A stretch of DNA of 64,000 bases from Paraspadella gotoi (Eukaryota > Animalia > Chaetognatha). Of this stretch, positions 1-27,609 are shown piece by piece. The notes beneath the pieces are model-generated. The model worked only from the letters and a program-made list of their open reading frames with translations, had not been told where the DNA came from and made no database searches. The stretch lies in the NCBI GenBank assembly GCA_051294375.1, contig CM119264.1, positions 15,338,196-15,402,195 of the forward strand, written 5' to 3'. Numbering within the stretch: the first letter of the stretch is position 1; each line of letters starts with the position of its first letter. Both the position numbers and the translations under genes were made by a program.

Positions 1-800
1 CAATTCCGGTCGCTTCCAAGACCCCTCCGCCTCCCGTTTTCGGTGCATACCTTACTTTTTTAGCCCGGATCGCTTTCGGTTTCGAGTGCACATCGCTTCC
101 TTCTTTTAAAAATTTTACATTTGTTATTATTTATAAATACTCTCTTTAGACATGTAATTCATTGGTAGAATAATTTTAAACAATCTTTTTTGTTAACAAA
201 TAACAAGCAAAATTTTTACTATGAAAAATTGTAAGATTTGTAAGATTGTAAGAATCGTTCGAGTGGAAATGAGTTTAAATGAAAAAAAACAAAAACCTTT
301 TTTCCCTATTTGCTTTTTTCTTTTTTATTAAATATAAATACAAGCTGCATTAATTATTCAATTAATCAATTAATTAATCATCAATCAATTAACTAAACAA
401 CTAATCAATCAAAATCACTTAAAAAAATAATGAATCAATTTTTTTTTATCAATCAATCAATTAAATAATCAATTAATTTATCAATCAACTAAATAATAAA
501 TTTATTTATCAATAAATTATTAAAAGAACCAATTAATAATTAATCAATTAATTAATCAATCAATTAAACAATGTCAGTGTTTATCATTGTCATCTCCAAT
601 GTCGTTGTTGCTTTTGTCCTGGTCAGTGACCTGACAAAAAAACCTAAAAATTAACAGCCTGATATGAATTTATTTTTATTAATCAATCAATCATTCAATT
701 AATCATGATGGTGCTTTCCTCGTTGTCATCATAATCATCCATCAGCGGTAGTCATTTCTTTTGTCATAATGAAAAGACAAAAAAACAAATAAGTTTGAGC

Positions 801-1040
801 TGTGGAAGACGATGCCGCGGAGCAGTTTACCGTCCGTTGCACACAAGGTCCCGAACTTCGGATCGGGCTGTAGTCCGACACTACAGGTGGGTTAGACGCC
901 CCGTCCCGCTTTTACTTGTGTGAATCAGCAGGGCGCGAACCTGAGTCCTTTGGGTTGGGAGGAGCTCGTGCTACCTCCGGCGCTATAGGTGCTGCTGATT
1001 CTCGGACGAGTAGTGGGGTATGAAATACTACCACTCAGAG
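801..1040 (-). mobile_element. tRNA-derived SINE-like insertion carrying a twister ribozyme
   Basis: 240-bp insertion relative to the paralogous empty site at about 55224-55243 (aagtttgagc|taacaatgcc). Box A-like TAGCGCCGGAGG and box B-like GGTTCGCGCCC. Confidence 0.75.
840..922 (-). ncRNA. Type-P5 twister ribozyme behind a tRNA-like head
   Basis: Minus strand: cacacaag taaaa GCGG GA CGG GGCGTC TAA CCC AC ctgtagt-gtcgg-actacag CCCGA TCCGAAGT TCGGG A c cttgtgtg. T1 CCG/CGG, T2 AC/GT. Predicted cut 894/893. Confidence 0.85.
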
Positions 1041-2658: not shown

Positions 2659-3587
2659 GCGATCTATAATTTGGAACGCCGACGACGACGACAACGCCGA
2701 CGCCCCTTATGCGCAAAAGTGTTACAATATCGTCGCAAACGCTTAGCGATTGCGACAATAAAAATTATACTTTCATATAATAACTTTTTGCAAGGAATCC
2801 AAATCCAATCTTAAAATTCAAAAATTTGTATTTTGATATTTTAGCTATTATATACTTATTACTATATATAAATTTAGCTCACTGGTGCCCACTAATGTAT
2901 GAAATTAAAAAATTAATTTACTAAAGTATTTTTAATGGTTTTTATTTTCACGTTTTATATGCTAAATTTTAATTTTCTAGAATTTTCACATCATTCTAAT
3001 GCTTATAGGCGGGGTGAACCTAGGCAATGCCCGACTACCAACTTGTATAATTTGGTCAACTGACATAATTTGATAAATCAATCAATCAATCAGAGAGAGA
3101 TAAAGAGAAACTTTTAAAAATTGACCACGATTCCATCGAAACTTCATATCCAGCTCAATCACACACTTCCCTACCCACACAAAAAATTTCATTCCAATCC
3201 ATCCATCCAATCACGAGTAATTGGAGTTTTTTGCTAAGGTGGGACAGACAGACAGTCATCTTTTTTTTTGCATAATCTATCATAATTCGATATTCTGACA
3301 TGATATATGTGAATGCTCGACAAGATTGAGGGGGTGGACCGACGGACCGATAGTGAATTATAGAGTCGGGATCTGCTTATAAGCATATCCGACTAAAAAG
3401 TGACTTACCGACCAAACTATGGGGATGGACCAACAAAGTGGATTATAGAGCCGGAATCTGAGATAGGCAGATCTGGCTAAAAACCTGTAACTATTCATCA
3501 ACCCCCTTACTTCATAAGGCACATAACCACCGTTTTGGGTATCACAAAATTTGTCATATGAAATTGGTTAATTATATAATTACTCAC

Positions 3588-3790
3588 CGTAATTCTTTGA
3601 TGTCTCTATTCCTTTGACGGGTTCCATGCTGGTTTTTTACATTAAAAATCAAATCGATCTCGTCTCTCACGTCTTTAGCCAAAAGTCCATCATCGCTATT
3701 GGACACCAATGCATCAAGGCTTATATCATGGAGACGAGAGTTGGTTAGTCGAGCTGGATGTCCAAGTCGCAAAAGTCGAGGATGTTGAGA
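3588..3790 (-). CDS. IGHMBP2: IGHMBP2 exon 7 (gene continues beyond left edge)
   Basis: SQHPRLLRLGHPARLTNSRLHDISLDALVSNSDDGLLAKDVRDEID...IKELR with conserved RLGHPAR; atcag| acceptor, |gtgagt donor. Confidence 0.93.
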
Positions 3791-3869
3791 CTGATATTTG
3801 ATAAAATTATAAACAAGTTTGAGCAAACAATGTCGGATCTGCCCACGATAATTAAGCAGTAGTCAAATA

Positions 3870-3975
3870 ACTCGCATCATTCTTTCTTTCAACTCGCATC
3901 ATTCTTTCTTTCAACTCGCATCATTCTTTCTTTCAACTCGCATCATTCTTTCTTTCAACTCGCATCATTCTTTCA
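3870..3975 (+). repeat. 22-bp tandem repeat, about 5 copies
   Basis: (caactcgcatcattctttcttt)n. Confidence 0.9.
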
Positions 3976-3985
3976 ATATTCATAA

Positions 3986-5238
3986 TTTTTAGTTGGATCT
4001 GCTTATAAGTAGATCCCGACTCTATATTTCACTTTGTCGGTCCGTCGGTCAGCCCCTCAATATTGTCGGGCATTCACATATATATCAGAACATCGAATTA
4101 TGATAAATTATGCAAAAAAAAAAGTGTCCTTCCGTCCATCCCATCTTAGCAGAAAAATCCAATTACTCGTGATTGGATGGATGGATTGGAATGAAATTTT
4201 GTGTGTGGGTAGGGAATTGTGTGATTGAGCTAGATATGAAGTTTCAATGAAATTGTTCGAGTGGAAGAAAGTTTAAATAGAAAAAACAAAAAACCTGTTT
4301 CACTAATTGATTATGATTTTTTTCTTTTTATAATAAATGTAAATGCAAGATGTATTAATTAATCAAATAATCAGCTAATTAAATAAATTAATTATTTTTC
4401 TACTAATTAATTATTCAATTAATTATTCAATTAATTTATAAAATAATTATTTAATCAATCAATCAAGTCAATTGTTATTGACATTATTGTCATCGATGCC
4501 ATCATCGTCGTCGTTCCTTTGGTTGAGGTAAGTGACCAAAAGACCTAAAAATAAACATTTTGGATCAAATTAAATAATTTATTAACTACCGCTAATGATC
4601 GTGCAAGTGGAAATGAGTAAATGGAAAAAACAAAAGTCATATTTACTTTAAGCATTTTTTCTTATATTTACTAATAATTATTATATTTATTAAAAATTGG
4701 TTATATAAATTAAAATGAAATTTTGTGTATGGGTAGTAAACTATGAGATTAAGCTGGTTATAAGTTTTTGATGGAATCGTAGGAGAGGAAAAGAGTTTAA
4801 AACAGAAAACCAAAAGACACATTTATGTCAATTTTAAAAAGTTTCTCTCTATCTCGCTTTGATTGATTGATAGATTGACCAAATTATGTTAGTTGACCAA
4901 ATTTTGCAGTTGTGCAAATTATGTCAGTTGAGCAAATTATGCGAGTTGACCAAATTATGTCAATTGACCAAACTTTGTCAGTTGATTTAATTATGCAAGT
5001 TGATTAAATTATGAAAGTTGACCCAAATTATGCAAGTTGGTATTAGCACAGCTACTGGTAATGATTGATAGATCAATTGATTTATAGATTTTTTCATAGA
5101 TTTATAAAAGAAGTCTGTTATGATTTGTTATAATTACAAATTGATAGTCAGAAAAATTACTATGATTTATCATCGGATTAGCTTATTACCGCTTAATTAT
5201 CGTAGGCAGATCCGACATTGTTTGCCCCAACTTGTTTT
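3986..5238 (+). mobile_element. Helentron-derived non-autonomous element (HINE/DINE-1-like) family 1
   Basis: 5' subTIR plus inverted copy (gt.ggatctgc...g.agatcccgac), GTCC-type microsatellite, 3' subTIR gcagatccgac plus short hairpin ending cttgttt, T-rich flanks. Many more copies in the window. Confidence 0.75.
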
Positions 5239-5485
5239 AGCTTGCATCATTTTTTTCAAATTGCATAAATAATAAAAATTTAAGTCAACTTGACTTTGGT
5301 TTTTCAAACTCATTTCCACTCCTAGATTCCATCCAGACGGACGGACATCGGTTTTTTTGCATAATTTATCATAATTCGATGTTCTGACATGATATAAGAG
5401 AATGCCCAACAAGATTTAGGGGGGACCGAAAAAGTGAATTATAGAGTCGGAATCTGCTTATAAGCAGATCCGACTAAAAACCTAC

Positions 5486-5646
5486 AGATTGAGCATTGCC
5501 ATTACAAGTAACCTGCTTCGATGCAAACATAAGCTTTTCAGCAAGGTTGTCAACCGCGACGTTGGATGGGGCGCAACATAGAATTTTTTGCTTCTGTCGA
5601 ACAAGTTGAAGAATAACCTCGGTAATTGTAGTTGTTTTTCCAGTTC
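5486..5646 (-). CDS. IGHMBP2: IGHMBP2 exon 6
   Basis: [39 protein letters not shown] (Walker A end plus motif Ia). Two in-phase donors are possible (exon end 5513 or 5486). Confidence 0.95.
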
Positions 5647-6994
5647 CTGTAAGTATATTTTAAAAAAAATCTAAAAAGTAATAATCATGTTTCTTTTACT
5701 ATTGTTGCATTTTAACAAAACAAGAATGAAAATTCCAAGGTGTGTTGCGCCGCAGTATTTTTTTTTATCCCGTGTATCTTGTATCTTCGATACGCTGCAT
5801 TGGAATCTCGCCTTTATTCGTTCGTTTTATTCGCTTAGATTTCAGGTTCTATTCCTGCCTTAAGGCCTGGGATCACTCGCCAAAAGTTATAAATCGTCCG
5901 AGTGGAAATAAGTTTAAATGGAAAAAACAAAAAAATATATTTCACTATTTGAACACCAATTGCTCATGAGTGGATGGGGCGATTGACTTGAAATTTTGTA
6001 TCTGGGTGGAAAAGTGTGTGATTAAACTGGAAATCAAGTTTCGATGGAATCGTTTGAGTGGAAAGGAGTTTAAATGGAAAAAACAAAGAACCTGTTTCAC
6101 TAATTGATTATGCTTCTTTTTCTTTTTATTTTAAATGTAAATGCAAGATGTATTAATTAATCAAATAATTAATTAGTTAATTAATCAAATAATTAATTAG
6201 TTAATTAATCAATTAGTCAATCAATAATTAATCAGTTAATCAATCAAAACAAACATTTTGGATCAAATTAATTGCATAATTAATTAAATAATTAACTTGA
6301 ATAAATTAATTATTAATTAATTAAATAATTAATTAATTACCGATAATGATCGTGGGCAGATCCGACATTGTTTGCTCTCTTACTTTCTCTCTTACTTTCT
6401 CTACAATGAGCGTTTTCCCTTTACTTTTTAAAGAAATTTGCACCCACTAGACCTTCACTTGCATTGCTTTACACAAAATAGCAAATTTTTATATGTTTCA
6501 GTCATAATAATTTAGTCATAAAGCTGTACAAAGGAGCATTTTTAAAAACAAAATAGCAATAATACATCCACCACAGGTTTTAAGATTTTCTTCTGAAACA
6601 AAAGAAAGTCCCATTAAAATTTTGACATTTTCGAAAATTGAAAAATAAAAATTACATTTTTTTATTTAAAAATGTTTGTGATCTACTATTCGAATTTTGT
6701 TTCTACCTGATTTTAATATTTTTGCTACGCCTTACTACACATACAAAATTTCATTTCAATCCAAACATCCAATCACGAGTAATTTGAGATTTTTCTAAGG
6801 GGGACGGACGGATGGACAGACACAGACGGACATCATTTTTTTTGCTTAATTTATCAGAATTCGATTTTCTGACATAATTTTAGTAAATGCCCAACAAGAT
6901 TTAGGGGGCGGACCAAAATAAAATCAGAGGGATTAGTAGATTCTATCGGATTCCCCATTTCTCGTCTCCATTAACGATCGCGTAACCCTTTCTT

Positions 6995-7163
6995 GGGTTA
7001 CTTTTACTTTCGCCGACCGGGGTTAGGGAGGGGTTAGGGTTAAGAGGGTTTAGGGTTAGGGTAATTAAGTAATATTTTTTTAAATTTTTTTTAAACAATA
7101 AGTATTTTTAAGTAGTTTCTCCAAATTCGCCAAAACCGCGGTCGGCGAAAGTAAAATTTAGCC
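6995..7163. mobile_element. 169-bp GG-ended MITE with TTAGGG motifs
   Basis: TIR core ttttactttcgccgacc/ggtcggcgaaagtaaaa, 8-bp TSD cctttctt, several ggttaggg motifs inside. Confidence 0.78.
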
Positions 7164-7681
7164 CCTTTCTTCCTCTTCCGCCTCTTTTCCTCCCTTCGCC
7201 TTCATTCTCATCGAGCGACGACAGAAGGAGCAAAGGGAGAGTTTTAGTTGTTTTGGGGTCTACTTCAGCTCACAATATAACTTTTTTGCCGATTTTTTGG
7301 ACTAAAATTAACTAAAATTAATCAAAATTTGTTCAAACTTGCTTTTTTCACCTAATAAAAACATATTGCATTTTAACCAGCAGATAAATTTCATTTCCTG
7401 GAAAAAAATTATTTGGACATTTTCAGTCCCCCAGGGGTACAGCCATACAGCTGAGAAGTGGAATATCAAAACTAGCCCCGATAGTTTTTTTTGTATCGCC
7501 AAAAAAAATAAAAAATCCGCCAAAATCGTTCAGTAGTTTTGTGCTCGAAAAATCGAAAGCATATTATTAATATGAAGCCGCCTGAATAGAGAGATACAGC
7601 CTACCGCCCATCAAACGTTCAATAAATTTTAAGTTTTTCAATTTTTCACATAAACAAAATATGTTTCACTATCCTTTTAAC

Positions 7682-7893
7682 CTGGAGGTCCATGTATGAC
7701 AGCTACATCCGGTCGACAGAGGGCGAAAGCCACGGCATCTTTTTGACTGGCATCTAAACTTGGGTTGAACCAAACAATGGAATTATTTTCATTATCAGAT
7801 AATTCCGAGGTAAAAAGAGCAGGCAAATCCCGAAGTGGAGCTGGATTGGATTGTTTAAAAAGGACCCTAATCAGTTCTTCCGCTGGACCACGC
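7682..7893 (-). CDS. IGHMBP2: IGHMBP2 exon 5
   Basis: RGPAEELIRVLF...FNPSLDASQKDAVAFALCRPDVAVIHGPPG, the first half of the Walker A motif; tgcag| acceptor, |gttaaa donor. Confidence 0.95.
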
Positions 7894-7898
7894 CTGCA

Positions 7899-7953
<55 letters not shown>

Positions 7954-7998
7954 TTAATTACGAAGGCGGAACAGGTTACAAACTAACAGAAGTCCGGT

Positions 7999-8575
7999 AT
8001 AAATATTGTTAATGTGTTTATTAAAGATCGTGAAAATCAAAGATTTATTTTATAGTTGGAACGCATGAAAGCTATTTTATATTATTCAAATACTATATAA
8101 TGTCAAAAAATTGTCTTAATAAATTTTAATTTTTTTAAACGGATTCAGATAGAGCTTAAAAAGTTAGATGAAGGTTACTAATACAATTTTTTAAATTTTT
8201 TATGATTTATCTATAAAAATTAACAAAAACTATAATATGTAATGCATGTTGAGGATGATGATAATTTATTTAAGGTTTTTTTCAAATTTTAGCCCATTTA
8301 CCATTAAAAGTTATCATCATTCATTAAATTTTATAGTTTTTGTTAATTTTCATATATCAATTTTAAAATTTTAAAAAGTTGTAATAATAACCTTCATCTA
8401 ACTTTTCAAGCTCTATCAGAATCCGTTAAAAAAAATAAAAAATTTTTAAAATATTTTTTTGATATTATATAATATTTGGATACTATAAAATAGTTTCTAT
8501 GCGTTTAACAATAAGCTAAATCTTAATTTTTTTTTAATTTTCACGATCTTTCATAAACATATTAACAATATTTAT
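7999..8575. mobile_element. AT-rich palindromic MITE
   Basis: Long imperfect IR ataaatattgttaat.tgttta..aaagatcgtgaaaat at both ends, extending inward. Confidence 0.65.
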
Positions 8576-8850
8576 GGGGTAGTGCAGGGTAATTCGGAAC
8601 GGGGGTAACACTGACATATAAAAAAAAAATTTATACAATATTTTTTATATGACTCTCCCAAATTATAATTACAGCAATCCATTGCTGCAGCAGCAGCTGC
8701 AGCATCAATTTTAAAACAGTTTGTCAAATTTCGTCTTGGAGTAATCGTCTTCAAGCCTCTGCCATTTGTAATTATATAAAGTTAGGATTATGAAATTGTA
8801 ATACATGATAGAAGAAACACCCAAATATTAAGTAATGTCAAGATTATTTT

Positions 8851-9793
8851 TAAACAAGTTTGAGCAAACTATGTCGGATCTGCCTACGATAATTAAGTGG
8901 TAATAAGCTAACTTGGTCAACTTGCATAATTTGGTCAACCGACATAATTTGGTCAACCGACATAATTTGGTCAACTGGCATAATTTGGTCAACTTTCAGA
9001 ATTCGGTCAACTTTCAGAATTCGGTCAACTGGCATATTTTTGTCAATTGGCATAATTTGGTCAATCAATCAATCAGAGAGAGAGAAACTTTAAAAAATTC
9101 AAATGTGTCTTTTGGTTTTCTAATTTGAACTTTTTTCCACTCCTACGATTCCATCAAAAAATGTATATCCAGCTTTATCACATACTTTCCTACCCACACA
9201 AAATTCAATTTCAATTTATCTATCCAATTTTTAATAAACATAATAATTATGAGTAAATTTAAGTAAAAATACTTCAAGTAAATATGACTTTTGTTTTTTT
9301 CCATTTTAACTCATTTCCACTCGCACGATTCCATCGAAACTTTATATCCAGCTCAATCACACACTTTCCTACCATCATACAAAATTTAAAGTCAATTGCC
9401 TTATCCACTCGTGAGCAATTGGCGTTTAAATAGTGAAATAGATTTTTTTGTTTTTTCCATTTAAACCAATTTCCTTTCGCACGATTCCATCGAAACTTCA
9501 TATCCAGCTCAATCACACACTTCCCTAATCACACACAAAATTTCATTCCAATCCATCCATCCAATCACGAGTAATTAGTCTTTTATGCTAAGGTGGGACA
9601 GACGGATAATTTTTTTTGGATAATTTATCATTGTGATTAAACTTTCTTTCGTTGTGTTTGGGTTATTTGAAATTAAAGACGAAATCTTTTACATCAACGA
9701 TTTATCATAATTAGATATTCTGACAAGATTGAGGCGGACCGACGGACCGACAAAGTAAGTCGGGATCTGCTGATAAGAAAATCCGACTAAAAA
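8851..9793 (-). mobile_element. HINE family 1 copy with 18-bp minisatellite
   Basis: Both ends present; (gttgaccaaattatgcca)n-like array at 8912-9065. Confidence 0.75.
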
Positions 9794-10142
9794 TAAATTG
9801 TAAGAGAGGTTTTGTATAAGTTTATGATACAAAAGACATCAGGCCCTTTCACACTTGGTGGTTACCTTACACTATTGTTGCCTCGAAGTCAAGTCTGATA
9901 TTCTTTTTTTCTTCCATTTTATTGAGTTTGAGATAAGAACAGACAGGTTTATTTTTAATATTTATCGTTTTTAAATGTTAAAAACTGTTTTATTATTTTT
10001 TTAAAATTTATACAAAAAAAACAAAAGCATGAAACAAAACATTTTTAAAGCAAGACAGAGTGATGAAAACTAAAACTGAGATCAACCAATTAAAAATATA
10101 TATTAATTGAATAATATTATATACATGAATTCTTTTAACTAC

Positions 10143-10254
10143 CTGAAATTTTTCAGACAATGCAAGGCATGCTTTAATCTTCGGTAAGTGACATCGTTTG
10201 CGAGCTTCACAATCCTATAATGTGCTTGGCCATCCAGAGCAAAAAGGTTTTTTT
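10143..10254 (-). CDS. IGHMBP2: IGHMBP2 exon 4
   Basis: EKNLFALDGQAHYRIVKLANDVTYRRLKHALHCLKNF contains the conserved KLANDVTYRRLK; AG/GT borders in phase. Confidence 0.93.
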
Positions 10255-10496
10255 CTATTAAGTTAAAAATAATTTTTAGATTAATACATAAGAAAATACC
10301 GCCACATTGTAGAAATTTAATTTCAAACTTTTCTAATTAGAAAACAATGAAACGAAAGGAATATATTACAATTCTTTTTAAAAAATTATTTCATTTAGTC
10401 AAAAATATAAAAAACTATTTAAAATAACGATTTTTAATTTCCAGTTTAATTTTAACCTACTTAATAATTTGGTGGACTAAAATCCACCAACCGTTT

Positions 10497-10558
10497 ATCA
10501 GCGGCCATTGGTGCCGGAGGTAAGTCATTCACCTCCCAACCCAAAGGTCCAGGTTTCT
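10497..10558 (+). mobile_element. Truncated tRNA-like SINE head related to the 801-1040 element
   Basis: atcagcggcc...gccggaggta...cctcccaacccaaagg.ccaggtt aligns with the minus strand of about 935-999. Confidence 0.6.
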
Positions 10559-10659
10559 GTCACTAACACAACAATAATTACTGTCTCTTCAATAACAATT
10601 TTTAAAAAAGATTTATATTTTTTTATTAACTGTTTAGGGGGAATCTGAATCAGAATTAA

Positions 10660-11534
10660 GGGGACCAAGTGACCAGGGGGGGGTAAAAAGCTGAAAGCAT
10701 AACATTGACCCTTTAACTTAAGCTGGTTCTGACCATATAACTTTTTCTTCTATAATCATTTAGGAAAGTAGTTAAAAAATTCGATATAATCAGCGAGCTT
10801 AATTTTCTTTTAAAAATCGGTAAGAAGAAAATCTTTTTCAAGTTTTTAATTTTTTTTCCAAAAAAGGGTAAGATCTAATTTTAAAAAGATCTTCAGCTTT
10901 TATCATAAAAATTTATAACAAAAAAAACTAGGAAAGAATCAAAATTTAGGGTATCGACTGATTTTATTTAAACTTTCTTTTCAAATGATTCTGTTAATTG
11001 GATAAAAATAAAACTCTTTGAAGTAATATAAATATAAAAAAAAGAGAAGATTCTGTACTTTTGCTAAATTTTAATTGTTAAAATTAGGAATCAATATAGT
11101 TTAATAATATATTTAAGGATGAATATGAATATTAATTAATAGTTATTACAGTTTTGTTTCTGTAAGAATAGAATTTAGGTTTGATTTTTCTGCTTTTAAG
11201 TAAATATAAAAAGAAAAAAATATTAGTCTTGTAAAGCCTTTGTTCAATGAGGCTTAAACCTAAAATAATAGCTTTGTACAGTAAAAAAGAAAAATTTGGA
11301 ATTTAGTAAAAAGTACTTTCTAATGCAAAAATAAAATAATGGATTATATAAATATTTAGGTAGGGTCAACTAAATTTTTTTAAATAATTTTTAAATTTTT
11401 GTTTCCGCTACAATAAGAGATAGGAATTTTTTCGCCACTTTCCCGTGCAAAGAAAAATTAATGACTATCACCATTCAAATTCCTTTGATGATAGACCCTT
11501 AAGCTTATGATATCATTTTTATCACTGGGTCCCC
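10660..11534 (+). mobile_element. TTAA-targeting MITE (Kolobok-like)
   Basis: TIR ggggacc(a/c)agtga flanked by TTAA on both sides. Confidence 0.82.
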
Positions 11535-11580
11535 TTAAAAAAAATTGAAATTTTGATATTATTTAAGGGTAGTACTATAG

Positions 11581-12977
11581 TAGGAAGCCGTTATAGAAAA
11601 AGAAGCCAGTGACTTTTTTCTTATATTTTTATATCGATAGAAGTGGAATGACGGGAATATTGTAAATCTCAAGTTTCGCTTTAATCGGACCTCACATTGT
11701 GGAGAAATCTTAGGAAACCAATCAAAATTCCAACCCTTTTTTCCAACATTCTCGCCTTTTAAGATTTTCGCCGATTCTGATTTCCTCTTACAAACTTATA
11801 ATTCCGCTAGTTAATTTTTTTTTCTTAAACGAGTGAAGGGAATCCACAACTTTCTGTTATTTTATGATTTCTGGGTAAAAAATATAATAAATTACATTAA
11901 CATTGGGATATTATGAAAGTATAATGTCTTGTGAAGCCTGTGAGAGTTAAATAATTAAAAAATTCGCCTATTTTATTATTGAAAAAATAACAGTAAAGTA
12001 AAGAAGTTGAATGTCTTCCGGCTCATTTCAGTAAACATCCCTGTTCTCTAGCATAAAATAATGTTTACTTTTTGCTGGTGGAAAAGAAAGATAAATACTT
12101 AGGCTGTGATGGGGTGAATAATATTTTGTAGAATTTTGTAAGCATGCTTGTAAAATCAGACAAGCAAATATTTAAGTGACAAAAAATTCACATTTTCTTT
12201 ATGCAAAAAACTTTAAAGTTTTACTAGAGTACAATTTAGCCTTTTTTCTTTAAGAATCATTAAAAAGAATTAAATTTTCATTTATTCTTATGGGGTATCA
12301 TTAGTTTTAAAAATTCATTATAATTTTGACTTAGTTTGACACTCACCCTGTAAGGAGGTTTCAGCATAAGTAATTCTAAAATTGTATCTTGTATGTACCC
12401 TATGATTATGGCTTCATTTTGGTACTATTACCATCCCTTTATCTTTATTCCTTCAAAAGATATTAGGAAAAATCAGTTTTTTTCTCAACCTTCCTTTTAA
12501 TTTATTTTTAAATAAAAATTTCGCGATTCAAACCGGACTATTTCATTTAAACCTGATCATTTTATGTCAAAATCATTATAAAATGAAAAAAGAAAAATAG
12601 GACAAGCTCTTCAGACACAAAGCTATCAGAATCGCGAAATTCGAAGTCGCTCATGTAACAGGAACATATAGCAATCCCGTTTGCAATTTTAAGTTTGTAA
12701 ACTTTCCCTTTCATTTCTATAGCAAAAATGAGGTTTGAAAATTCTCCGGAGATAAGTAGTGCATTTCCCCTGGCTTGTTTGATATTAAATCCTTTATCAA
12801 ATGCCATAAAACGAATAGGACAAGCTCTTCAGATGCAACGCTCTCGGAATCGTGCGTTTTTACAAGTTTTTTTAACCGAATTTCTGGCAAACGCGTTTGC
12901 AATTTGGGTAGTCAGATTTGAACGGAATTCTCTATTAGAAAAATGTTGAATTTTTTTTAAGCGAGATTCTTCGTCTA
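11581..12977 (+). mobile_element. 1.4-kb non-autonomous DNA transposon with 7-bp TSD (hATw-like)
   Basis: TAG...CTA ends, TSD actatag; near-identical copies at 43968-45361 and 60890-61893. Confidence 0.85.
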
Positions 12978-13182
12978 ACTATAGACAAATTAAGCTGCTT
13001 GTTTACTATATTCATATAAAAATAATTATAGATAAGTATTCACTAATATAAATATGATAGTTTTTAAGATATAACTGCTAAGTTTTGATTCCAAACTGTC
13101 CTAAGTCGGGGGAAAGTAAGCTTATTAAATGAATGGATAATTTTTTATATTGGTTGTACCAATTTCATACACTCAAACTCAC

Positions 13183-13271
13183 CATCTCCCTCTCGATCGA
13201 ACGCGACGGTTAGAGAAGAACAAGTTAGATTCGAAACAACCCCTGAAGCGATTCCATTTGATCCTCCGATG
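13183..13271 (-). CDS. IGHMBP2: IGHMBP2 exon 3
   Basis: Follows a 76-nt intron; IGGSNGIASGVVSNLTCSSLTVAFDREGD; |gtgagt donor. Confidence 0.88.
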
Positions 13272-13347
13272 CTAATAATAGTGAATGTTTTATAAAACCA
13301 AACCAATTTTCTACTTTATAGCGACTTTTCTTTTAAACAACACGTAC

Positions 13348-13462
13348 GTGAGAGATTGAGAAAGTTCCAATCCAACGATATCTCCCTGAGACAAGCTGTG
13401 CGAGGGCAAAATATTTTCCTTCCAACGCCTTTCCAAGGTTATTAAGATGCGACCGTTTAATC
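13348..13462 (-). CDS. IGHMBP2: IGHMBP2 exon 2
   Basis: tttag| acceptor; GLNGRILITLERRWKENILPSHSLSQGDIVGL; |gtacgt donor; phases join exons 1 and 3. Confidence 0.9.
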
Positions 13463-13658
13463 CTAAAGTAAAAACAAAAAACAGTAATTACGTGATACGC
13501 CGCATTGACTTAGTATTTTTGATCATTGATTAATGTGGCATTTTAAAACAATTGAACTACCTAACAACCCTAGCACAGGGTTATCCATTAAGGTGTGATA
13601 TATGTAGTCGGGCATTGCCTAGGTTCACCCCGCCTATAAGCATGACACCTTCAGTCCT

Positions 13659-13830
13659 GACCCGGTGGCTCATTGAGTAAAGCCATCAGCTCATGACCAC
13701 GAGGTACCGGGTTCAATCCCAACCTGGTACCTACCCTGCGGGAAGCGTGAGGACGGCCGTAAGCCGCCTTGGGGGCGTGGCAACCCCTCAAGCCTGGTTC
13801 CAATCCCAGGACCCGTTCCATGGCTACTAA
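13659..13830 (+). mobile_element. tRNA-derived SINE-like element carrying a twister ribozyme
   Basis: Box A-like TGGCTCATTGAG and box B GGTTCAATCCC, anticodon-like loop ctCATga, followed by the twister. Confidence 0.75.
13738..13816 (+). ncRNA. Type-P5 twister ribozyme behind a tRNA-like head (one T2 mutation)
   Basis: gcggg aa GCGT GA GGA CGGCCG TAA GCC GC [P3] CCTGG TTCCAATC CCAGG A cccgt. T1 TCC/GGA pairs; the L4 G is T in this copy. Confidence 0.8.
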
Positions 13831-14319
13831 AGGGGGTTATAGAAGTTACGGATAGTCATCTTCAGCCCACTTAGCGCCTTATCCACATATACAAAACTTA
13901 ACCCTAGTTTAGTGTTAAGCCAAGCATTAATACCCTGTCTTAAGGGTTAGGGTTGAGGGGAGATGACCTCTCACTTCTTTAACTCCCTCTAGCAACCATG
14001 GAATAGGTCCTGGGCTTGGAGGTCCTATCATATTAACATGTGATTTTATAAATACAGGGAGATCAAGCTCTAATGGGACTAACTAATTGTTTACAGCACT
14101 GATGGAAAAAAAAAACCTTTTTGGAAACTAAGCTAATTTTTCTTTCGATCGATATCAAAAACGTCTGGAAAATCCAACAGCAACTACTGTAATAAAAGCT
14201 TTTTGTATAACATCAACATGTCTTATTTTTTCACGCCGTTCCCTTAAAAAATTTAGCAAAAATCAAAATGAAAGATGATGACTCCTGACATTTGACCACG
14301 CAGTTTTTGTGACTGAAAT

Positions 14320-15347
14320 CTGGGTTGGCAAAAATCTGGGTTGGCAAAAACCTGGGTTTTTTTGGTTTTTTTTTGGGTTTTATTGGGTTTTTTTAAATTA
14401 TAGATAGCAGACTGTCATATTAATTCAAAATATTTATACTTCTTAAGTGATTACTGATAAAAATATATAAAAATATACTGAATATATTTAATAATAGTAT
14501 TAATTAATATTTTTTATGGTAAACAGAAATGTAATAAATATAAATAATATATTTTCTGAATAAAACCTGTTATGAAAAAAGTGTATAAACTTAATTTTAT
14601 TAGAAAATAATAATTAAATACTCAAAATAATTTGATATAAATATGCATCATAAACATTTATATAAATTACTAATACATTGAAAATTGAAGTACATCTTTA
14701 GTACATGTTTTTGCCGAATTAACTTGTCTTTTGGGCTAAAAATAAATTTTGATGTTTGGATAAAATATTTGAGTTAATTTAATAAAATATTAAGGTGTTT
14801 AATTAGGCTAAGATTTTTTCCTGACGTCAATATATTATTTTCCCGCATTCTCGTTACTTTACTCCTGGTTAGGATACCTTTTCAGAGAATTCTTTAATGT
14901 GTGACAAATAGTCAAATATATAATTATATTGAAGTTTAATTTTTTCTGATAAATAGCTTTAAAAAAACCCTAACCTTGTGTTAAATAATAACGAGAGAAT
15001 AGCAATCATTTTTAATGTGTCGCTTTTTACATAATTTGCGATTCATGATTAGGATTACTTAATATAAGGAAAATGGTACAGAAGCCAGCAACGAAAGTGA
15101 TACTGATATTAAACATGTAAAACTTAGGTTTAAGATAATTTTTTATCATTAAATCATATATTAAGCTTTGTAAAAATTATATATCTTATATGATTTAAAT
15201 TTTTGCTTTAACAATTTAATGTTTCATATTAAAAAATTAATTAATTTTAAAAAAACCCAAAAAAAACCACTTTTTAGTAGGTTTTTTTGGTTTTTTTTAA
15301 CTGGGGTTTTTTGTTTTTTTTGGGTGGGTTTTTTAATGCCAACCCTG
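14320..15347. mobile_element. hAT-like MITE
   Basis: TIR c(t/a)gggttggca, 8-bp TSD actgaaat, subterminal gggtttttt motifs. Confidence 0.85.
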
Positions 15348-15515
15348 ACTGAAATACCCTTGAAATACCCTTGATTAATTAATCTTTTCATACAATTGAA
15401 ACATTCTTTGAAATATTATACCACTTCATTGATAGGGAAGCCAGGTTCACTGGGAGTGAATAAACAAGTCTGTGAGAGAGGCTTGATTAAAAGCTTGCAG
15501 AAACCTGTTATGTTA

Positions 15516-15580
15516 TTATCTTGCAAGTGTGATGGAGGCCTTAAACCACCAAAGCCTGTCCAAAGTCAGGGACAAGATAG
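15516..15580 (+). ncRNA. Type-P5 twister ribozyme, intact-looking
   Basis: P5 ttatcttg/caagatag; P2' GTGT; GA; T1' TGG; AGGCCT; UAA; P2 ACC; T2 AC; P3 cAAAg; P4 CCTG/CAGG; L4 TCCAAAGT. Both pseudoknots pair. Predicted cut 15542/15543. Confidence 0.85.
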
Positions 15581-15990
15581 CTTATTTATTAAATGGATGG
15601 ATAATTTTTATATTGGTTGTACCAATTTCATTGTAAGATAGAGAAGCAGAATGTATCACGCATCCTTTCCATAACTGTGAACTTCCTGACAGCGCCAAAA
15701 GTGGCTGGAATGGCAGCATTCCTAACGGGCGCGGTCGCAAAAGCATATGCTGACTTCTCTGAACATTTTGAGAAGGTTACCGAAGGTCAATTATTTTAAT
15801 AGATTATATTCTCTTAACATTTTTTTACATATATACTAATTTTCATATCATTTTTGTTATATTTACCCATCAAACATTTTTTTAAATTTAGTCCCAAAAA
15901 AGCTGGACCTCCCTGTATAAAATAATAAGCTTATTTAGTGAAAACAAAAGTTTATTTTGTTATTTTTACAACAATTTTTTAATGATAATA

Positions 15991-16040
15991 AAGACGGCCA
16001 TGTTTCGACTCTTAGGGGTTTGAGTCTTTATCAGCGTTAT
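15991..16040 (-). ncRNA. Degenerate copy of the minimal hammerhead
   Basis: ataacg CTGATAA a GACTC aaacccctaa GAGTC GAAAC ATGGC cgtc; core G>A and GUC>GGC; flank homologous to 47805-47850. Confidence 0.7.
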
Positions 16041-17692
16041 AGGCTCCACGTACGATCGATGTCTTTTAGACAACGAAATCTGAACTTCAATAATTACCAT
16101 CTTTCTTGATCTCATTAGTTAGTATGAAGCTTACTTCATTTAAAAAAACGGTAGTCTCAAGTTATCTCCTTATCACTTAGAACTTCCCAGGTAAATTTCT
16201 ATGAATTAAAAACACGGTAAGACATGGTTTCTTCAATGATTGTTTATCTAATCTCATTTTAGATATAAGTATGTTCAAATTTTTATGGTATAGATAATTT
16301 TTAAAGATCGAATTCCTCATAAGAATCTTCACGTCTTTTACTTACATAAGTTTTTAGGTAAGATGCCACATTATCTGATACAATTTTTTTTTCTTAATTC
16401 GCTTTCCCTGATTCTTTTTCTTCACTTCTTTTCTTCTCTTTCTTTATATTTTCCACTTCCTCTTTCCTCGCTTACTTCTCACTCTGTCACTTACCATTTT
16501 TCGGCCCCTACTTTTTCTTGCCACTCATGCACTTTCCTTACCTTTTTTCTCTCCTTCTCTCTTTCTCTTTCTTTTCCCCTCTTTTTCTTTCCAATTTTCC
16601 CTCATTTCCTACCTTTTATTTGTCTCACTATTTTTCCCCCCATTTGCCTATTTTTTTTTGCCTTTGGCCCCCTCTTTCATTTTCTTCCCTTCTCTTTTTC
16701 TTGTTTTCTCTTTCCTCTTCCCTCTCACAACGTTTACATTGAGCCATATCAAAGAAAATCTTTAATATGCATTATAAGAAAGAAAATGAACGGTAGCGCA
16801 GATTTTTCTGTTTCAAATTTTGGTTGCCTAGCAAATTTAGTAAATTGACAGATTTTCCGCAAAATCTGTCGATTCTGAGAAAAAAAGTCCTGACGCTTTC
16901 CATTGGCTTAAAAGGATGCGGTTTTTTTTGTTTTATCAACGTCAGTAAGTACCCCATCTTTTAAAACTAATAAAAGAGTTGAAAATATTTTCTTTAGCAT
17001 AAATAATTGCAAGTCACAAAAAGTCACAAATTAAAAGTTGTCTTTAAAAATTATTTGTGGCTAAACGAAAAGAGTTTTTTTGATAATTTTGTAGGTGTTA
17101 AAAGCTTATTCTGTGGACTATATTTTCTGTTAATTTAAGCCAATTTAAACTATTTTTGTTTAATAAATTATAATAAAAACTAAAACTGCGACTTTTTGAC
17201 TTGTCAACTTTAAAATTAATTCATAAGTGAACTATGAATGATATAAGGAAAATATTTTACTCAAGGGTGAAGAAGATAAGGAAGAAAAGAATTCCAAAAT
17301 AAAAAAATTTTCTCAACTTTCCTTGGCATTCAAATTTGAAGACGAAAGTGAAAATGGACAAAAATGGACATGATTTTTTTCCCTAAAAGTTGCAAAAATG
17401 TTACTCTTATATGATTAGAAATAGCTGGAGATGGTTTTAACCAATCCGTATTTTGGCCTAATTTATATTATGGTGCAAATTAAATTAATTTTGTTAATAG
17501 TAACTGAACAATACTGGAAAAAGTAGTTTTTTCTCTGAATGCGAGGATCGTAAGCAGAGGCTATAACAACGAAGAGAGAGAAACTTACACAAAATAATAA
17601 TCATAAAATATCTGGTATGCGTAAAAAAAAATAAAATGAATTAGATCAAGACCCCGACGTTTCTTCCAAATTATCCATTCGCTTATTATTAC

Positions 17693-17873
17693 CAGTTCTG
17701 CGAGACGAGATACATAAGCCAATAAGCGCCACGCCCTTTCTTTCTAAATCCTTGGGCGACCCGCGGGAGAGTAGACGGCGGGACTGTTCAACTTCCGCCT
17801 CTTGCTCTAATTTTAGTAACGACAAATGTTTGGCTACGAAATCTTCAACAAAGTTCATTGTAAATTGTTGCAT
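17693..17873 (-). CDS. IGHMBP2: IGHMBP2/SMUBP-2 (Upf1-like SF1 helicase) exon 1
   Basis: MQQFTMNFVEDFVAKHLSLLKLEQEAEVEQSRRLL...GVALIGLCISSRRTG resembles the IGHMBP2 N-terminus (recalled as [22 protein letters not shown]...VSSQRTG). GT donor at 17692-17691, phase 1. The second ATG at 17858 is a plausible true start. Confidence 0.9.
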
Positions 17874-17883
17874 ATAAATAAGG

Positions 17884-18710
17884 GGCGATCCCGGAGTTGA
17901 ATTCGCTCTGGAGGCTTATGAAAAAACGAAGAAAAAGAAGAGGAAAAAATAAAGTTTGTTTACAGAAAAGAAAATTTAAGACCGTTACAATAAGGCGTAG
18001 TGAAAGTTACATACGAAAATTCTAAAAGTCAATTATGAACAACATACCATCAGTAAACATTAATTTGTAAAAAAAAATAATTTTATGTTTTTTAATTTTC
18101 GCAGTAGGCTATATTTATATATAGTACTATCCTTATAAAATCGAAAAATTTCAAAATAGACTTTTCTTAATTTTTATTACAGATTTGAATTTCTCGTCAA
18201 AAGTTGATAAAAGAAAATATAAATCATTTTAAAATTCTTTCATTAAATTGGTTAAAAATAAAAAAACTATATTTAATATATAAAAAGTTAATTTTCAGCT
18301 TAAAATATTGCTTTTTTTCATTTTTGTGACCCACTTAATGAAGAAATTTTTCAAAAGAGTTATATTTCTTTTTATCAACTTTTTATGACGAATCCAAATT
18401 TGCAAAAAAATCTTAGAAAAAACTGTTTTGAAATTTTAACATTTATTGATTTAGTACTAGTATAAATATAGCCTACTGCATAAATTGTAAATTTATTATA
18501 ATTTTTTTTACATAAATGTTCATTAATATAATGTTGTTCGTTCCTCACTTTTAGAATTTTTATTAAAGTTAAATTTAGATATTTTACTACGCCTTACCGT
18601 TACAACAATGATATTAAAAACGTTTTTAAGCTTCACGAACTAAGGATTTCTTTTTAATTCTTTAAAAAAATTAATTATAATATTTTTTTTTCATTGATAG
18701 ATATTTACAC
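17884..18710. mobile_element. Partial copy of the same MITE, interrupted by a hAT-like MITE
   Basis: TIR ggcgatcccggagttgaattcgc at 17884; sequence resumes at 18597 after the insertion. Confidence 0.75.
17991..18596 (+). mobile_element. hAT-like MITE family C
   Basis: TIR taaggcgtagt; 9-bp TSD ccgttacaa. Confidence 0.85.
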
Positions 18711-23098: not shown

Positions 23099-23627
23099 AA
23101 AACGAAATATATGACCATGAGGTAGTACGGTCATCCAAAAGGAGCATCAACAATCAAAATAAAAAAAAAAAGATAAGAAGAATCACAGAATTGATCACAG
23201 AACTGATAAACGTTGGAAATAAATGGACTATAATTTTATGTTTTCGCGAGAATAAAAGGTATAACGATTATGATTAAAAGGTGTTATGAGGAACAAAGTC
23301 AAGTCTAAGCTTGAGACTTTTTTTTCTCGAGACCATTGCCAAAAAGTCGTCTGGTTGCCCTGTGCGCCCCCTGGCCAAATCGCGTCCAAACAAAAACATG
23401 GCGACGTGAAAATGACCCGCTATTATTTTCGCAAACCTTCTTATTTGTCCATCTTCTCTATAATGGCATCTTTCCCTGAATAAAAAGAAATAAAAAAAAT
23501 ATTGATTCAAAAACAAAACTTTATATACGTCGTGGCTCTTTGCTCTTGCGCCGAGGCCATCATCCACGCAGTCAATGGCATCGTCAACGACAACGACATT
23601 CCCTAGGCAGAGAAATGGGTCCTCCAA

Positions 23628-25331
23628 ACCGACTTTGCTAATGCTTTAAACTGCATCAACCGCGAAAAGATACTTGAAGAAGTTCGGCGACACTGCCCAG
23701 GCGCCGCAGCACTCGCCGAGCTTTGCTACGCAACACCAAGCAATCTATTCTTTGGCGACCAACGCATCTCCAGCGAATCTGGTACCCAACAGCGCGACCC
23801 CCTTGGCAGTCTCCTTTTCGCCCTCCTCCTTCAGCCCCTCTCCCGTCTCAAAACGGATTTTTCTCTGCTCCTCCTCGTTTTCTTCCTCGATGACGGCATA
23901 CTCTTAGGCCGCCGCGAAGATCTCATTTGTAAAGTCGAGGAGGGGGTTCTTTCACATTCGCGCTTTCGACCTGCTGCAAACTTCAGGGGCTGAGCTCGGC
24001 CTAAAATTAAATGCCTTCAAATCTCTTATCTGGTGCGGCGACGAGGCCCTCCCCGATCCTCTCAGTCGAGGCGTTCCTCCCGCAGCCCCTGACGGATTCA
24101 CCCTCCTCGGCTCCCCAGTTGGCAACATCCCCTACTCTCGGTCGGTCGTCTCCACACGATCCGAGAAAATCACCTCAATCTTCGATCTACTCCCCTCCCT
24201 CAATGACGCCCAGATTAAATACAATATCCTCCGCCACTGTTTCTCTCTCCCCAAATTCTCTTACTGCCTTAGAACCTGCGATCCTCTCCACCTTCAACCC
24301 ACTTACTCTCACTTTGGTTCCTTCCAATTGGCCTCTTTTTCACGCATCCTCGGACGCCCTCTCAACGAATCCGCGCGCATCCAAGCCTTTCTCCCCGTCA
24401 AACTAGGGGGCGCCGGCCTTCGCTCCGCCACTCGACATAGCGCCGCCGCCTTCATCTCATCCATCAGCCAAACCCGCCACATCATCGACTCCCTCCTCCC
24501 CGACAATCCTTCGCGCCGCCCACTACAAAACGCCTTCCCTCTCCTTCAGGATGCCACTGGCAACCCCGCGTACTACTCCCTCGAACTTTTACCTCCCGAC
24601 TTCACGCAGCACTCCCTCTCATCCGAAATCGACTCCTCCTCTCACAACTCTGCTCATCAGCATCAAATCGCGACACCGCCAGACTTCACTCTCTCTCCCT
24701 CCCTCACGCCGGTGACTGGTGCGATGCGGTGCCCTCTCCTAGCCTCAACCTCAACCTGGATTCTCGCTCCTTCAGCGCGGCGATGGGATATCGCCTCGGA
24801 ATCCCGCTCTTACAGGCGGGACCCTGCCGCTCTGAAATATGCGACCTCGAGGAGGATGACCTGGGGGACTACGCCCTGCACTGCCACGACGACCACGGGG
24901 TCAAGGGGGACCGACACGACCGGATTCGGGACAAAATCCACTCAGAGGCACAACTCGCCTGCCTCAACCCGAAGAAGGAAGCTCATGGTCTCGTCTCTGG
25001 ATCCCTATCTCGTCCCGCCGACATCTACATCCCTAATTGGATAGACGGCCGGAAAATAGCCTTTGATGTATCCGTCGTCTCCCCAGTCCAGGAGGCCATA
25101 ATCTTCCAAGCCGCCATTGAGATGCGGAAATCCGCCAAAATGCGCGGCAATTTCGCCAACTGCCAGGCCCAAGGAATACACTTTCAGCCTCTCATAGTGG
25201 AAACCTTTGGCGGCTGGGACAAGGAAGCCCTGACTTTTCTTAAAGCCCTTGCCCACGCTCGACGATGGGGAAAAAACAATTCCCTGGAATGTAAATACTT
25301 TTTCCAGTGCCTGTTCGTTGCCCTTCTTTGA
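23628..25331 (+). pseudogene. CRE-clade (RLE-type) non-LTR retrotransposon remnant, RT plus CCHC plus restriction-like endonuclease
   Basis: DFANALN, GTQQRDPL, FFLDDG, LPVKLGGAGLRS, C..C..H.LHC, RHDRIRD, RPADI, AFDVSV and ETFGGW motifs; several frameshifts. Confidence 0.88.
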
Positions 25332-25399
25332 TTTTACTTTGATATTTATTTCCATATTTTTATTTTTAAATGTTGACCAATTACCATACAATTACCATA

Positions 25400-27609
25400 C
25401 AATTCTTCTGCTTGAAGACCCCTATGCAGAATTTTCTCTCCTCCGCTCCTGCCTCTCTTCCTAAACTCTCCTACGCCCTGCGCGCCACACCACCTTCCTT
25501 TATAAAGCCTTCTCTACAACGCTTTGATGGGATCATGCGCGAGGCCCTAGTGGGATCTCGCCTGGACGACCTCCAATGGCGCCAAGTTTTCTCTTCCCGT
25601 TTCGATGGGAGGGATGGGCGTCAGAGGAGCCTCAGCCCATGCCCCCGGAGCCTTCCTCGTCTCCACTCGTTCTACTCGTGCTCTTGTTGAGTCTATTATC
25701 CCTCTCCTGTGATCCTTGACTCTGCCAGAGCCCTTCAGACTTTGAATTCCCTCGTTACCTCCCCCTTTGATGAAGACCTCGGCGATGCAACTCAAAAGAT
25801 TTTTTTTTCTGAAATAAAAGAGACAATTTGACAGTTAAGACGATAAAAAGATAAAACGATTTTAAACAATTTGACATTCAAACAATAAAAGAGTATTGAG
25901 CAAGACTAATTGCACTGATGGCACTAAAAATAAAAAGATAATTTTATAAAAAATTGTCAGACACGCGATCGACCTACATCTTCAGCAACATTTGGTGGTC
26001 GACCTCTCTTCTGAAAGAGACATTGCGCGTCTTAAATCTTTGGCTTGGCCACATGCTGGAGATTGGCTCAACCCGGCCCCTTCTCGCCCCCTGGGACTTC
26101 ATCTACACTAGAGTGATGTGAAAATGATAAATTTTTAGAAAATTAAAGTTTAGCATATAAAACATGAACATAAAATCCAATAAAAATATTTTGGTAAATT
26201 TATTTTTTAATTTTATACATTAGTGGGTACCAGTGAGCTATATTTATAATAATAATTATTATTATTATTATTATAATAGTAATAAGTATATAATAGGCTA
26301 AAATTTCAAAATACAAATTTTTAAATTTTAAGATCGGATTTGGATTCCTTGCAAAAAGTTATTATAAGAAAGTACAATTCCTTTTTTAAAAATTATTTCA
26401 TTAAGTTAGTCAAAAATGTAAAAAACTATATTTAAGACGCCGATTTTAAATTTCCAGCTAAAAATATAGTTTTTTGTAGTTTTAACCTACTTAATGACAT
26501 AATTTTTGAAAAAGATTTATACTTTCTTTTATTAACTTTTAACGAGGAATCTGAATCTGTTCTCAGAATTAAAAAAAAACCATTTTGAAATTTTGACATT
26601 ATATAAGGGTAGTACTATATACAAAATAAGCTGACTGGGCTACTATATTTATTAAAAAAAAAAAATAATTACAGATTAGTATTCACTAATTCTAATATGA
26701 TAGTTTTCAAGATATAACTGCTAAATTTTGATTCCAAACTTTCACTTCACCCTAATCTACACCCACTAGAATTTCCAGTGGCAGCCCAATACCGTCTCGG
26801 CCTCCGTTTTCAGCATGGCTGGACCCTGCCCTGCTTGTGGTGCCGATAGCGATACCCTCGGTGATCATGCTGTATCTTGCGCAAACGATGGAGAAAGGAT
26901 CTCGTGTCACAACAAACTTCGGGATGCCCTTCACAAGGACGCAGCACGCGCCGCTCTTGCTCCCACTAAGGAAGCTCAAGCCCTCCTGCCTAGCAGGACT
27001 GCACGCCCCGCTGATATTTACATCCAAAACTGGATAGAAGGGAAGGACGCCGCCTTGGATGTGACCGTTGCAAACTCCCTCCTCTCATCCATCATCCACA
27101 GGGCTGCGGAATATCCAGGTTCGGCGTTGGAAACCGCCCGTGGGAAGGAAAATGGCTGTCCTTCGAAGCTTGCCGCGCCGAGGGGATCATTTTCGTCCCC
27201 CTTCCAGCCGAGACACTCGGAGCTTGGGACGCCGATGCAGCCCTCCACATTTCGTAAAATTTGTCTGGCACTGGCAAGGCAAACCGGACGCGAAGGGGGT
27301 GAAACAATCCGTCATCTCTTCCAGCGCCTCGGAATTGTATTGATGAAGGGAAACGCCGCCCTCCTTCTCAACCGCAATCCCTCTCACCCGACTCCAGATG
27401 TTGATGCATCGATGGCGACGTCGATCACGAATGACTCCTGAAATGACTCATTAATTCTCCATCTCAACATCTGTTAGAATCTTTCTGTGATAGTCCATTC
27501 CTGTGATTCCTGTGATTCTTCGTATTTTGTTTTATATTTTGATGCCCTTTTGGATGACCAGTCTACCTCATTTATTTTGTTGTCTCTTTTTCTTTCCAGG
27601 AAAAAAAAA
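25400..27609 (+). pseudogene. Second, divergent CRE-like retrotransposon remnant, interrupted
   Basis: LPKLSYALR, GDWL, CPAC..D.LGDHAVSC, RPADIYI, ALDVTV, LFQRLGIVLMKGNA. Split by a hAT MITE at 26109-26754; A-tail near 27601-27609. Confidence 0.85.
26109..26754 (+). mobile_element. hAT-like MITE family B inside the CRE ORF
   Basis: 8-bp TSD atctacac. Confidence 0.9.

Follow-up and report, generated by a model that had tools for sequence, protein, structure and literature searches.

The locus

The window analysed here is a 64,000-nt stretch of a Paraspadella gotoi contig, and its left part carries the exons of an IGHMBP2/SMUBP-2-like helicase gene on the minus strand, at approximately 17.8, 13.4, 13.2, 7.8, 5.6 and 3.7 kb (at least six exons). 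The frame with the exon at 3.7 kb (3587-3862, minus strand), the last one upstream of the element described below, is one that we take to be IGHMBP2-like by its motif match only. Matches to Pfam AAA_11 and SMUBP-2_HCS1_1B and to PDB 4b3f identify the neighbours of that exon, and a homolog search with one IGHMBP2 exon gave no match. Together, the exons account for no more of the helicase than its N-terminal part (3587-17915, minus strand, 14 kb with repeat-rich introns), and the gene continues beyond the window start. Because only this part of the helicase is encoded upstream of it, the element probably lies within an intron of the gene, in sense orientation. The sequence-only reading had placed it there provided that the gene runs leftwards, and the shared strand and the partial helicase upstream now make this placement probable. 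Elsewhere, the window holds broken non-LTR retrotransposon fragments (23607-25391, 26770-27441 and 30171-30503) with a weak RVT_1 match and with CCHC and restriction-like endonuclease (RLE) motifs, which we presume to resemble the CRE clade.

Positions 801-1040 are absent from a paralogous copy of the surrounding repeat (55131-55330, plus strand). Alignment of 561-1200 with 54991-55330 leaves one clean gap, and the empty site has a single GAGC (55230-55233) followed directly by TAAC (to 55237). The same empty junction is present in contigs of all four sequencing runs that we analysed from this organism (X1, X2, X3 and X9, out of nine from three studies; X9 is only guessed to be RNA). That the block is an insertion, as had been proposed, is thus borne out by both the alignment and the empty site.

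The element itself spans 801-1037 (237 bp, functional on the minus strand) and has TG at 801 and CA at 1036-1037. At the filled site, GAGC (797-800, plus strand) precedes the TG, and GAG (1038-1040, plus strand) follows the CA and is itself followed by TAAC. Three leading matches between such flanks arise in 2.5% of random site pairs, a value for a boundary that was picked post hoc. The pair GAGC/GAG is probably a degenerate 4-bp target-site duplication (TSD) with one base missing on one side, although in a single copy it is suggestive only; the simplest parse, again no stronger than suggestive, is a 237-bp TG...CA element together with a 4-bp duplication whose last base is missing from one of the two copies. 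The TG...CA ends therefore shorten the 240 bp given previously, and the earlier statement that there is no TSD is probably wrong, whereas the lack of a poly(A) tail stands. In one X3 contig an extra C follows position 1040, which would complete the duplication, but the contig could equally derive from an empty site. The right junction at 1040 is uncovered by contigs of X1, X2 and X9, which has no bearing on polymorphism.

Absence from the paralog, and the fixed ends and unrelated flanks of other copies, make it likely that the whole element is a solo LTR left by a non-autonomous LTR retrotransposon. Its U3-like part has a predicted 5'-terminal hairpin upstream of the promoter (1008-1036, minus strand, from MFE folds), and its U5-like 3' part after the ribozyme (801-839, minus strand) ends in CACA. 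The ends have a 5-bp inverted match, and the terminal inverted repeat (TIR) stops at about five bases. No T4 run occurs on the minus strand of the whole element.

A tRNA-like segment joined to a predicted twister ribozyme

Within the element, 45 nt precede a tRNA-like head enclosed by a 9-bp stem (5' arm 992-1000, 3' arm 923-931, both minus strand). In the fold ensemble the pairs of this stem have probabilities of 0.98-1.0, and its 3' arm adjoins the 5' strand of twister P5 (915-922), so a perfect 9-bp stem leading directly into the twister, as first described, is upheld. The minus strand of the element folds better than its shuffles (z -2.26, with 2 of 200 as good). We interpret the enclosed segment (932-992, minus strand) as a predicted Pol III promoter and not as a tRNA gene. 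In the tRNA numbering that we presume for it, T8 (985) and T54 (939) lie 46 nt apart, the canonical tRNA spacing, with box A at 974-985 and box B, which contains GGTTC, at 932-940 (both minus strand). A tRNA-like domain with boxes A and B had been claimed before; its register supports that claim, but C stands in for A58 in box B, neither the acceptor nor the anticodon stem pairs, ARAGORN reports no tRNA gene in the element and the Rfam tRNA model has no match to it even at E<=10. We infer that Pol III would start at about 992, position 1 of the tRNA register. With such a start, eight of the nine bases of the 5' stem arm and the hairpin at 1008-1036 would lie upstream of it, and they could fold only in RNA begun further upstream, for example in the 3' repeat of a two-LTR transcript.

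The twister prediction covers 840-922 (minus strand) and is opened at P5, with P3 present. In order along the minus strand, the parts are P5 (915-922/840-847), L2 (910-914), P2 (906-909/889-891), the conserved L1 G (905), T1 (901-903/859-861), a P1 of one pair (900/895), the cut (894/893), T2 (887-888/855-856), P3 (880-886/868-874) and P4 (863-867/850-854), where T1 and T2 are what we take to be the two pseudoknots. A descriptor for a P5-opened twister, written post hoc after the sequence had been seen, gave a single match in 128 kb (both strands), at 850-914 on the minus strand, and no match among 20,000 dinucleotide shuffles of the 240-mer. The descriptor puts the predicted U/A cut at 894/893, in agreement with the cut proposed at first.

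Compared with Table 1 of PMC8501958, the twister parts are complete and in the P5-opened order: UAAAA, the 3' strand of P2, GACGG, the one-pair P1, U/AA, the 5' strand of P2, AC, a 7-bp P3 starting CUGUAG, P4 and L4 (UCCGAAGU). Thus the UAA in L1, the conserved L1 G, an imperfect P2, P4, L4 and both pseudoknots are all present. P3 begins with CUGUAG in the element as it does in Schistosoma twisters. Relative to those of S. mansoni, T1 is CCG/CGG for CCC/GGG, T2 is AC/GU for GC/GC and P4 is CCGA/UCGG for CCGG/CCGG, with pairing kept in each case. Both pseudoknots and P4 therefore appear to have been maintained through compensatory changes.

Several features depart from a standard twister. P1 is one pair closing four bases, where a typical twister P1 has two or more pairs, and P2 has a bulge or mismatch. 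Ensemble probabilities, which are pseudoknot-free, are approximately 0.4-0.85 for P3, P4 and P5 (one terminal P5 pair, 0.01) and approximately 0.01 for P1 and P2. The Rfam twister-P1, twister-P3 and twister-P5 models had no match in three stretches scanned, either at the gathering threshold or with E<=10, the latter also for 96 nt by themselves. Cleavage without P1 has been described as inefficient in the available text of PMC8501958. We consider the predicted twister likely to be active, at whatever rate the near-absent P1 allows. No Rfam hammerhead match was found in the element, and neither the twister descriptor nor Rfam gave a second ribozyme on the plus strand. Exact patterns of the ribozyme core had no matches in viral, metagenome or prokaryote collections, and a degenerate pattern matched none, one and one, respectively; we dismiss the two matches as chance, since both fail T1, P4 and L2.

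A dispersed family with fixed ends

The element is a member of a dispersed family of roughly 1,000 copies, in order of magnitude, with fixed ends and unrelated flanks. Its depth exceeds that of long, uniquely flanked contigs by three orders of magnitude (ratios of approximately 1,900, 1,500 and 1,200), figures that give an order of magnitude only, as summed contig depth is not copy number. Each copy in a long contig is single and has 240-1,360 nt of flanking sequence. On the right, 26 contigs of X1 and 9 of X2 depart from the window copy at 1032, have six common bases ending in CA and then diverge (among the 24 of 491 loose ends listed), with flank agreement past that end of 0.51 (X1) and 0.56 (X2); one X1 record (record 1) appears to end exactly six bases past 1032. 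At the left end, two groups of 11 and 14 contigs in X1 and one of 10 in X2 have the end TGTGG in common and diverge before it, again among the loose ends listed. Head-to-tail joints are absent from the 15 of 19 joints listed, a count from which collapsed arrays could be missed. Hence an inspection of copy ends, arrays and permutation points, suggested earlier as a check, returns fixed TG...CA ends away from the cut and no head-to-tail joint within that sample.

Head and twister travel together: of 2,527 pieces, the 32 longest were listed, and 26 of these reach across box B as well as the cut site, with loci recurring between runs. An internally deleted copy in X1, X2 and X3 joins position 859 to the hairpin motif of the far end, keeps the same CA end and has lost the head together with the greater part of the ribozyme. 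Other internal deletions span 889-943, 897-944 and 949-987. Most of the depth disagrees with the window copy at 819, 942 and 984 and in the last five bases of that copy.

Among the 40 of 47 variant rows listed (27 rows mapped), none falls at G905, A904, U894, A892 or the T2 bases, and the commonest change in the ribozyme core is in the P3 loop (878). A1 (893) varies in approximately 1% of depth in X1-X3, and X9 has changes at 9-12% at A1 and T1 (A1, 11%). Several listed variants are of the type expected from CpG decay. This pattern argues against a uniformly dead ribozyme and does not by itself prove selection; low core variation could instead reflect a young family. Neither a separation of head from twister nor a normal TSD and tail with a uniformly dead ribozyme, the outcomes that the sequence-only reading had named as counting against it, is therefore what the copies exhibit: 26 of 32 are linked, and G905, the cut U and T2 are unvaried in the rows listed.

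Relatives without the ribozyme

In X9, the tRNA-like segment (928-982) is approximately tenfold deeper than the rest of the element, with one contig at each loose end. Read on the sense strand, the deep contig has the tRNA-like segment, then a T4 run, then a CACA end some 30 nt later. This is how an ordinary Helenus LTR is laid out, and the one contig suggests a ribozyme-less sister family in the same organism, probably an abundant ordinary Helenus family. The tail motif of this sister was not found within the window. A second insertion, at about 10467-10597 (plus strand), is absent from at least five in-window copies of its flanking repeat. In common with the main element it has the tRNA-like segment and what is left of a stem around it; it contains no twister, opens with a 7-bp hairpin and has an ambiguous target duplication.

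Comparison with known elements

The LTRs of animal Helenus elements contain a tRNA-like segment and have 4-bp TSDs (PMC10886601, Kojima 2024, in the portions available), and as far as its supplement goes most of them start with TGT and end with ACA, with many internal parts ending in AG. The element resembles Helenus (TRIMp3) in being short and non-coding, in its TG...CA ends, in having boxes A and B inside the repeat and in a length within the reported LTR range. In Helenus, TSDs in animals are 4 bp and solo LTRs are common; the corresponding observation here is GAGC/GAG in one copy. Two Helenus LTRs enclose a primer-binding site (PBS) along with a polypurine tract (PPT) in a total of less than approximately 1.3 kb, whereas here we see single copies with weak TGG and AAG hints of such sites. 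A structural difference is that the tRNA-like segment leads into a predicted twister; in most Helenus LTRs, according to the sections of that article at hand, a T-run with a short tail occupies this place. The available text of PMC10886601 makes no mention of a ribozyme, and the Helenus sequence file gave 10 matches to four L4-like motifs, none in a twister context by eye, although its line breaks can hide matches.

Plant LTR retrozymes also leave solo LTRs and 4-bp TSDs, and circularization with more than one round of reverse transcription replaces their missing terminal repeat, according to the accessible text of PMC4918200 (Cervera et al. 2016). Shared features are a self-cleaving ribozyme (predicted here) in an LTR-like unit and no coding capacity; GAGC/GAG would correspond to the 4-bp TSD of the plant elements, and the element itself would be such a solo LTR. 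Our element differs in its predicted twister, which takes the place of a type III hammerhead, in its animal host and in its tRNA-like internal promoter. Its repeat is also shorter, at 237 bp versus the 300-400 bp reported in what we have of the plant literature, and circles have been shown in plants, whereas here they are proposed from sequence. The original definition of LTR retrozymes includes a hammerhead, and the motif here is a twister. We thus file the element, which comes closest to plant LTR retrozymes in its proposed working and to Helenus LTRs in its build, neither as Helenus nor as an LTR retrozyme, but as a variant at their intersection.

Schistosoma Sm-alpha and Sj-alpha and the metazoan non-LTR retrozymes are likewise found in animals and have a unit of 150-400 nt (available text of PMC6765202 and PMC7229834), and in Sm-alpha in particular a ribozyme immediately follows a Pol III-type promoter, which its cleavage would remove. 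As described there, however, these elements carry type I hammerheads in tandem copies and have no LTR, PBS or PPT, whereas the copies here are dispersed and have TG...CA ends. RtcB circularizes the RNA of animal retrozymes in vitro (from the part of PMC7229834 available). Twisters at the 5' ends of RTE/Perere-3 LINEs are the nearest match for the ribozyme, being located in a retroelement and having a very similar core, including the start of P3, and a weak or variable P1 (PMC8501958, available text). Those twisters are open at P1, and their cut sets where the autonomous LINE begins at its 5' end, beside the TSD; elements of this kind inserted by target-primed reverse transcription (TPRT) have both 5' end and TSD at the cut site (same source, same limits). 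In our element it is P5 that is open, and the cut falls inside the element. Cassandra, in the account available in PMC10886601, likewise has a Pol III promoter within its LTR, but this promoter is 5S-derived, the host is a plant, no ribozyme is reported and the RNA ends are set by the Pol III start and stop. The only retroelement role that we found described for twisters, in the available parts of PMC8501958 and PMC7761336, is the trimming of RTE-type LINE 5' ends. A literature search by title and beginning of abstract, with subscription papers and Repbase entries outside its scope, found no twister in an LTR or TRIM.

A proposed retrozyme-like replication route and its alternatives

Taken together, these observations lead us to favour a model in which the element is the solo LTR of a Helenus-like TRIM, with a tRNA-like predicted Pol III promoter and a predicted twister, that works like a plant LTR retrozyme. 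We give this reading a probability of approximately 0.5. In a two-LTR parent, Pol III would start near 992 in the 5' LTR, which offers no T-run terminator, and the twister would cut at 894/893 in both LTRs and so release a unit RNA. That RNA would consist, in order, of the 3' half of the ribozyme, U5, the PBS, the internal part, the PPT, U3, the tRNA-like head and the 5' half of the ribozyme, with its promoter coming from the 3' LTR. Being without a terminal repeat, it would be circularized by a host ligase of the RtcB type; a Gypsy-type reverse transcriptase primed at the PBS could then pass more than one round of the circle and rebuild the LTRs, and an integrase would insert the rebuilt element with a 4-bp duplication. 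Solo LTRs would arise by recombination or by short reverse transcription and would be dead ends.

The route speaks to a puzzle in the original interpretation, that a Pol III transcript would cut off its own promoter, which was taken to hint at multimeric or circular intermediates. Such intermediates fit the data, but since the promoter would be retained through the 3' LTR, a two-LTR parent dissolves the paradox. The position of the ends is equally informative: TG and CA lie approximately 92 and 143 nt from the cut, and this distance, the dispersion of copies and the probable 4-bp TSD point to an integrase-inserted LTR and not to a target-primed cut RNA. It follows that the partner to be sought is an LTR retrotransposon with the same PBS and PPT and not, as first suggested, a LINE reverse transcriptase with the same 3' end. 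A scan of 118 + 69 + 8 frames of the window, covering 69 of the 135 candidates on the plus strand and 118 of the 155 on the minus strand, gave no Gypsy-type domain. In the contigs, we found no two-LTR copy, PBS or PPT, which is expected either way, as short-read contigs cannot cross two near-identical LTRs. After the 3' end, the plurality flank in one X1 group reads CA-A-TGGT (0.9% by chance), a weak hint of an LTR-internal junction; the TGG is absent in X2 and in the other left-end group of X1. AAG precedes the 5' end in the plurality flanks of X1 and X2, which contain no G-rich PPT.

The same LTR evidence (insertion, TG...CA ends and copies) would also suit a Helenus-type solo LTR in which the twister is slow or a passenger, so that the element replicates through a linear RNA that keeps a terminal repeat, as an ordinary TRIM does, or in which transcripts are no more than trimmed or limited by a ribozyme standing in for the T-run terminator, and no circle forms. 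The one-pair P1 and imperfect P2 fit this view, as does the position of the ribozyme, which stands where the sister contig and, in the available Helenus account, most Helenus LTRs have their T-run. Set against it are the compensatory changes that keep both pseudoknots and P4 and the argument, taken from the accessible part of PMC4918200, that efficient cuts in both LTRs leave no terminal repeat for strand transfer; we regard this alternative as unlikely but deserving of serious weight. It is doubtful, to a greater degree, that we are dealing with a non-LTR SINE retrozyme like Sm-alpha, with a Pol III promoter and a ribozyme, spread as tandem arrays by a LINE enzyme such as that of the RLE-type elements in the window. 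The order of promoter and ribozyme is that of Sm-alpha (available text of PMC6765202 and PMC2770079), non-LTR reverse transcriptase fragments do occur in the window and no internal region was seen in the contigs. Nonetheless, the TG...CA ends are fixed and away from the cut, there is no tail, none of the 15 of 19 joints listed is head-to-tail, and the probable TSD is 4 bp, as opposed to the larger TSDs and tandem copies of animal non-LTR retrozymes in the literature at hand. For these reasons, the Sm-alpha/SINE framing of the sequence-only reading fits the dispersed copies poorly.

Two further explanations seem improbable to us, and to the same extent. The tRNA-like segment and twister might be cargo of a non-autonomous DNA transposon with very short TIRs and TG...CA ends like those that we assume for the Ginger family; the 5-bp inverted match between the fixed ends, the short TSD, the occurrence of copies singly and dispersed and the absence of a PBS or PPT from what was seen are all compatible with this, but no TIR extends beyond about five bases, a strand-specific RNA signal runs throughout the element body and a sister with a Helenus-like layout exists. 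Alternatively, the element could be an ordinary tRNA-derived repeat that looks like a twister by chance, in keeping with its being missed by the Rfam models and with a post hoc descriptor. The empty shuffle control (0 of 20,000), the agreement in order and sequence with the published table, including three compensated helices, and the failure of the two database pattern matches in pairing tests that the window copy passes all speak against chance. A classical tRNA SINE, which has its head at the 5' end and long TSDs of variable length, was rejected on account of the 45 nt before the head, the fixed CA end and the absence of an A-rich or simple-repeat tail. Helitrons end in CTRR; no such end was seen by eye, and a Helitron end was rejected as well.

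Implications

The LTR retrozymes described are from plants and use hammerheads, whereas the TRIMs described with a tRNA-like part have no ribozyme. Twister ribozymes are widespread in eukaryotic genomes. If the retrozyme-like model is correct, replication by way of a ribozyme in the LTR would have originated repeatedly, each time with another catalyst. Put in full, no LTR retrozyme would have been known from an animal before this element, and no retrozyme with a twister as its catalyst: it would be a Pol III-driven Helenus TRIM whose terminator was swapped for a circularly permuted twister, with a Gypsy partner, a circular RNA and a ribozyme-less sister in the same genome, and an independent, convergent origin of the plant design. 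For this extended claim the odds seem to us about even. The ribozyme-less sister would then form a natural before-and-after pair, in which one can ask whether gain of a ribozyme switches replication to circular RNA, and the pair bears on the proposed link between retrozymes and viroids. The element also exemplifies a class of repeat missed by both Rfam and tRNA scanners, and many sense intronic copies could, if the ribozyme is active, affect host pre-mRNAs.

Two other repeats in the window are recorded here in their own right. At 49109-51176, a GC-rich inverted repeat pair with CCCTAA-like units resembles a degenerate telomeric repeat inside another repeat. A repeat of approximately 1.4 kb is present in three copies (11581-12977, 43968-45361 and 60890-61894) with 90-98% identity and is likely a recent mobile element.
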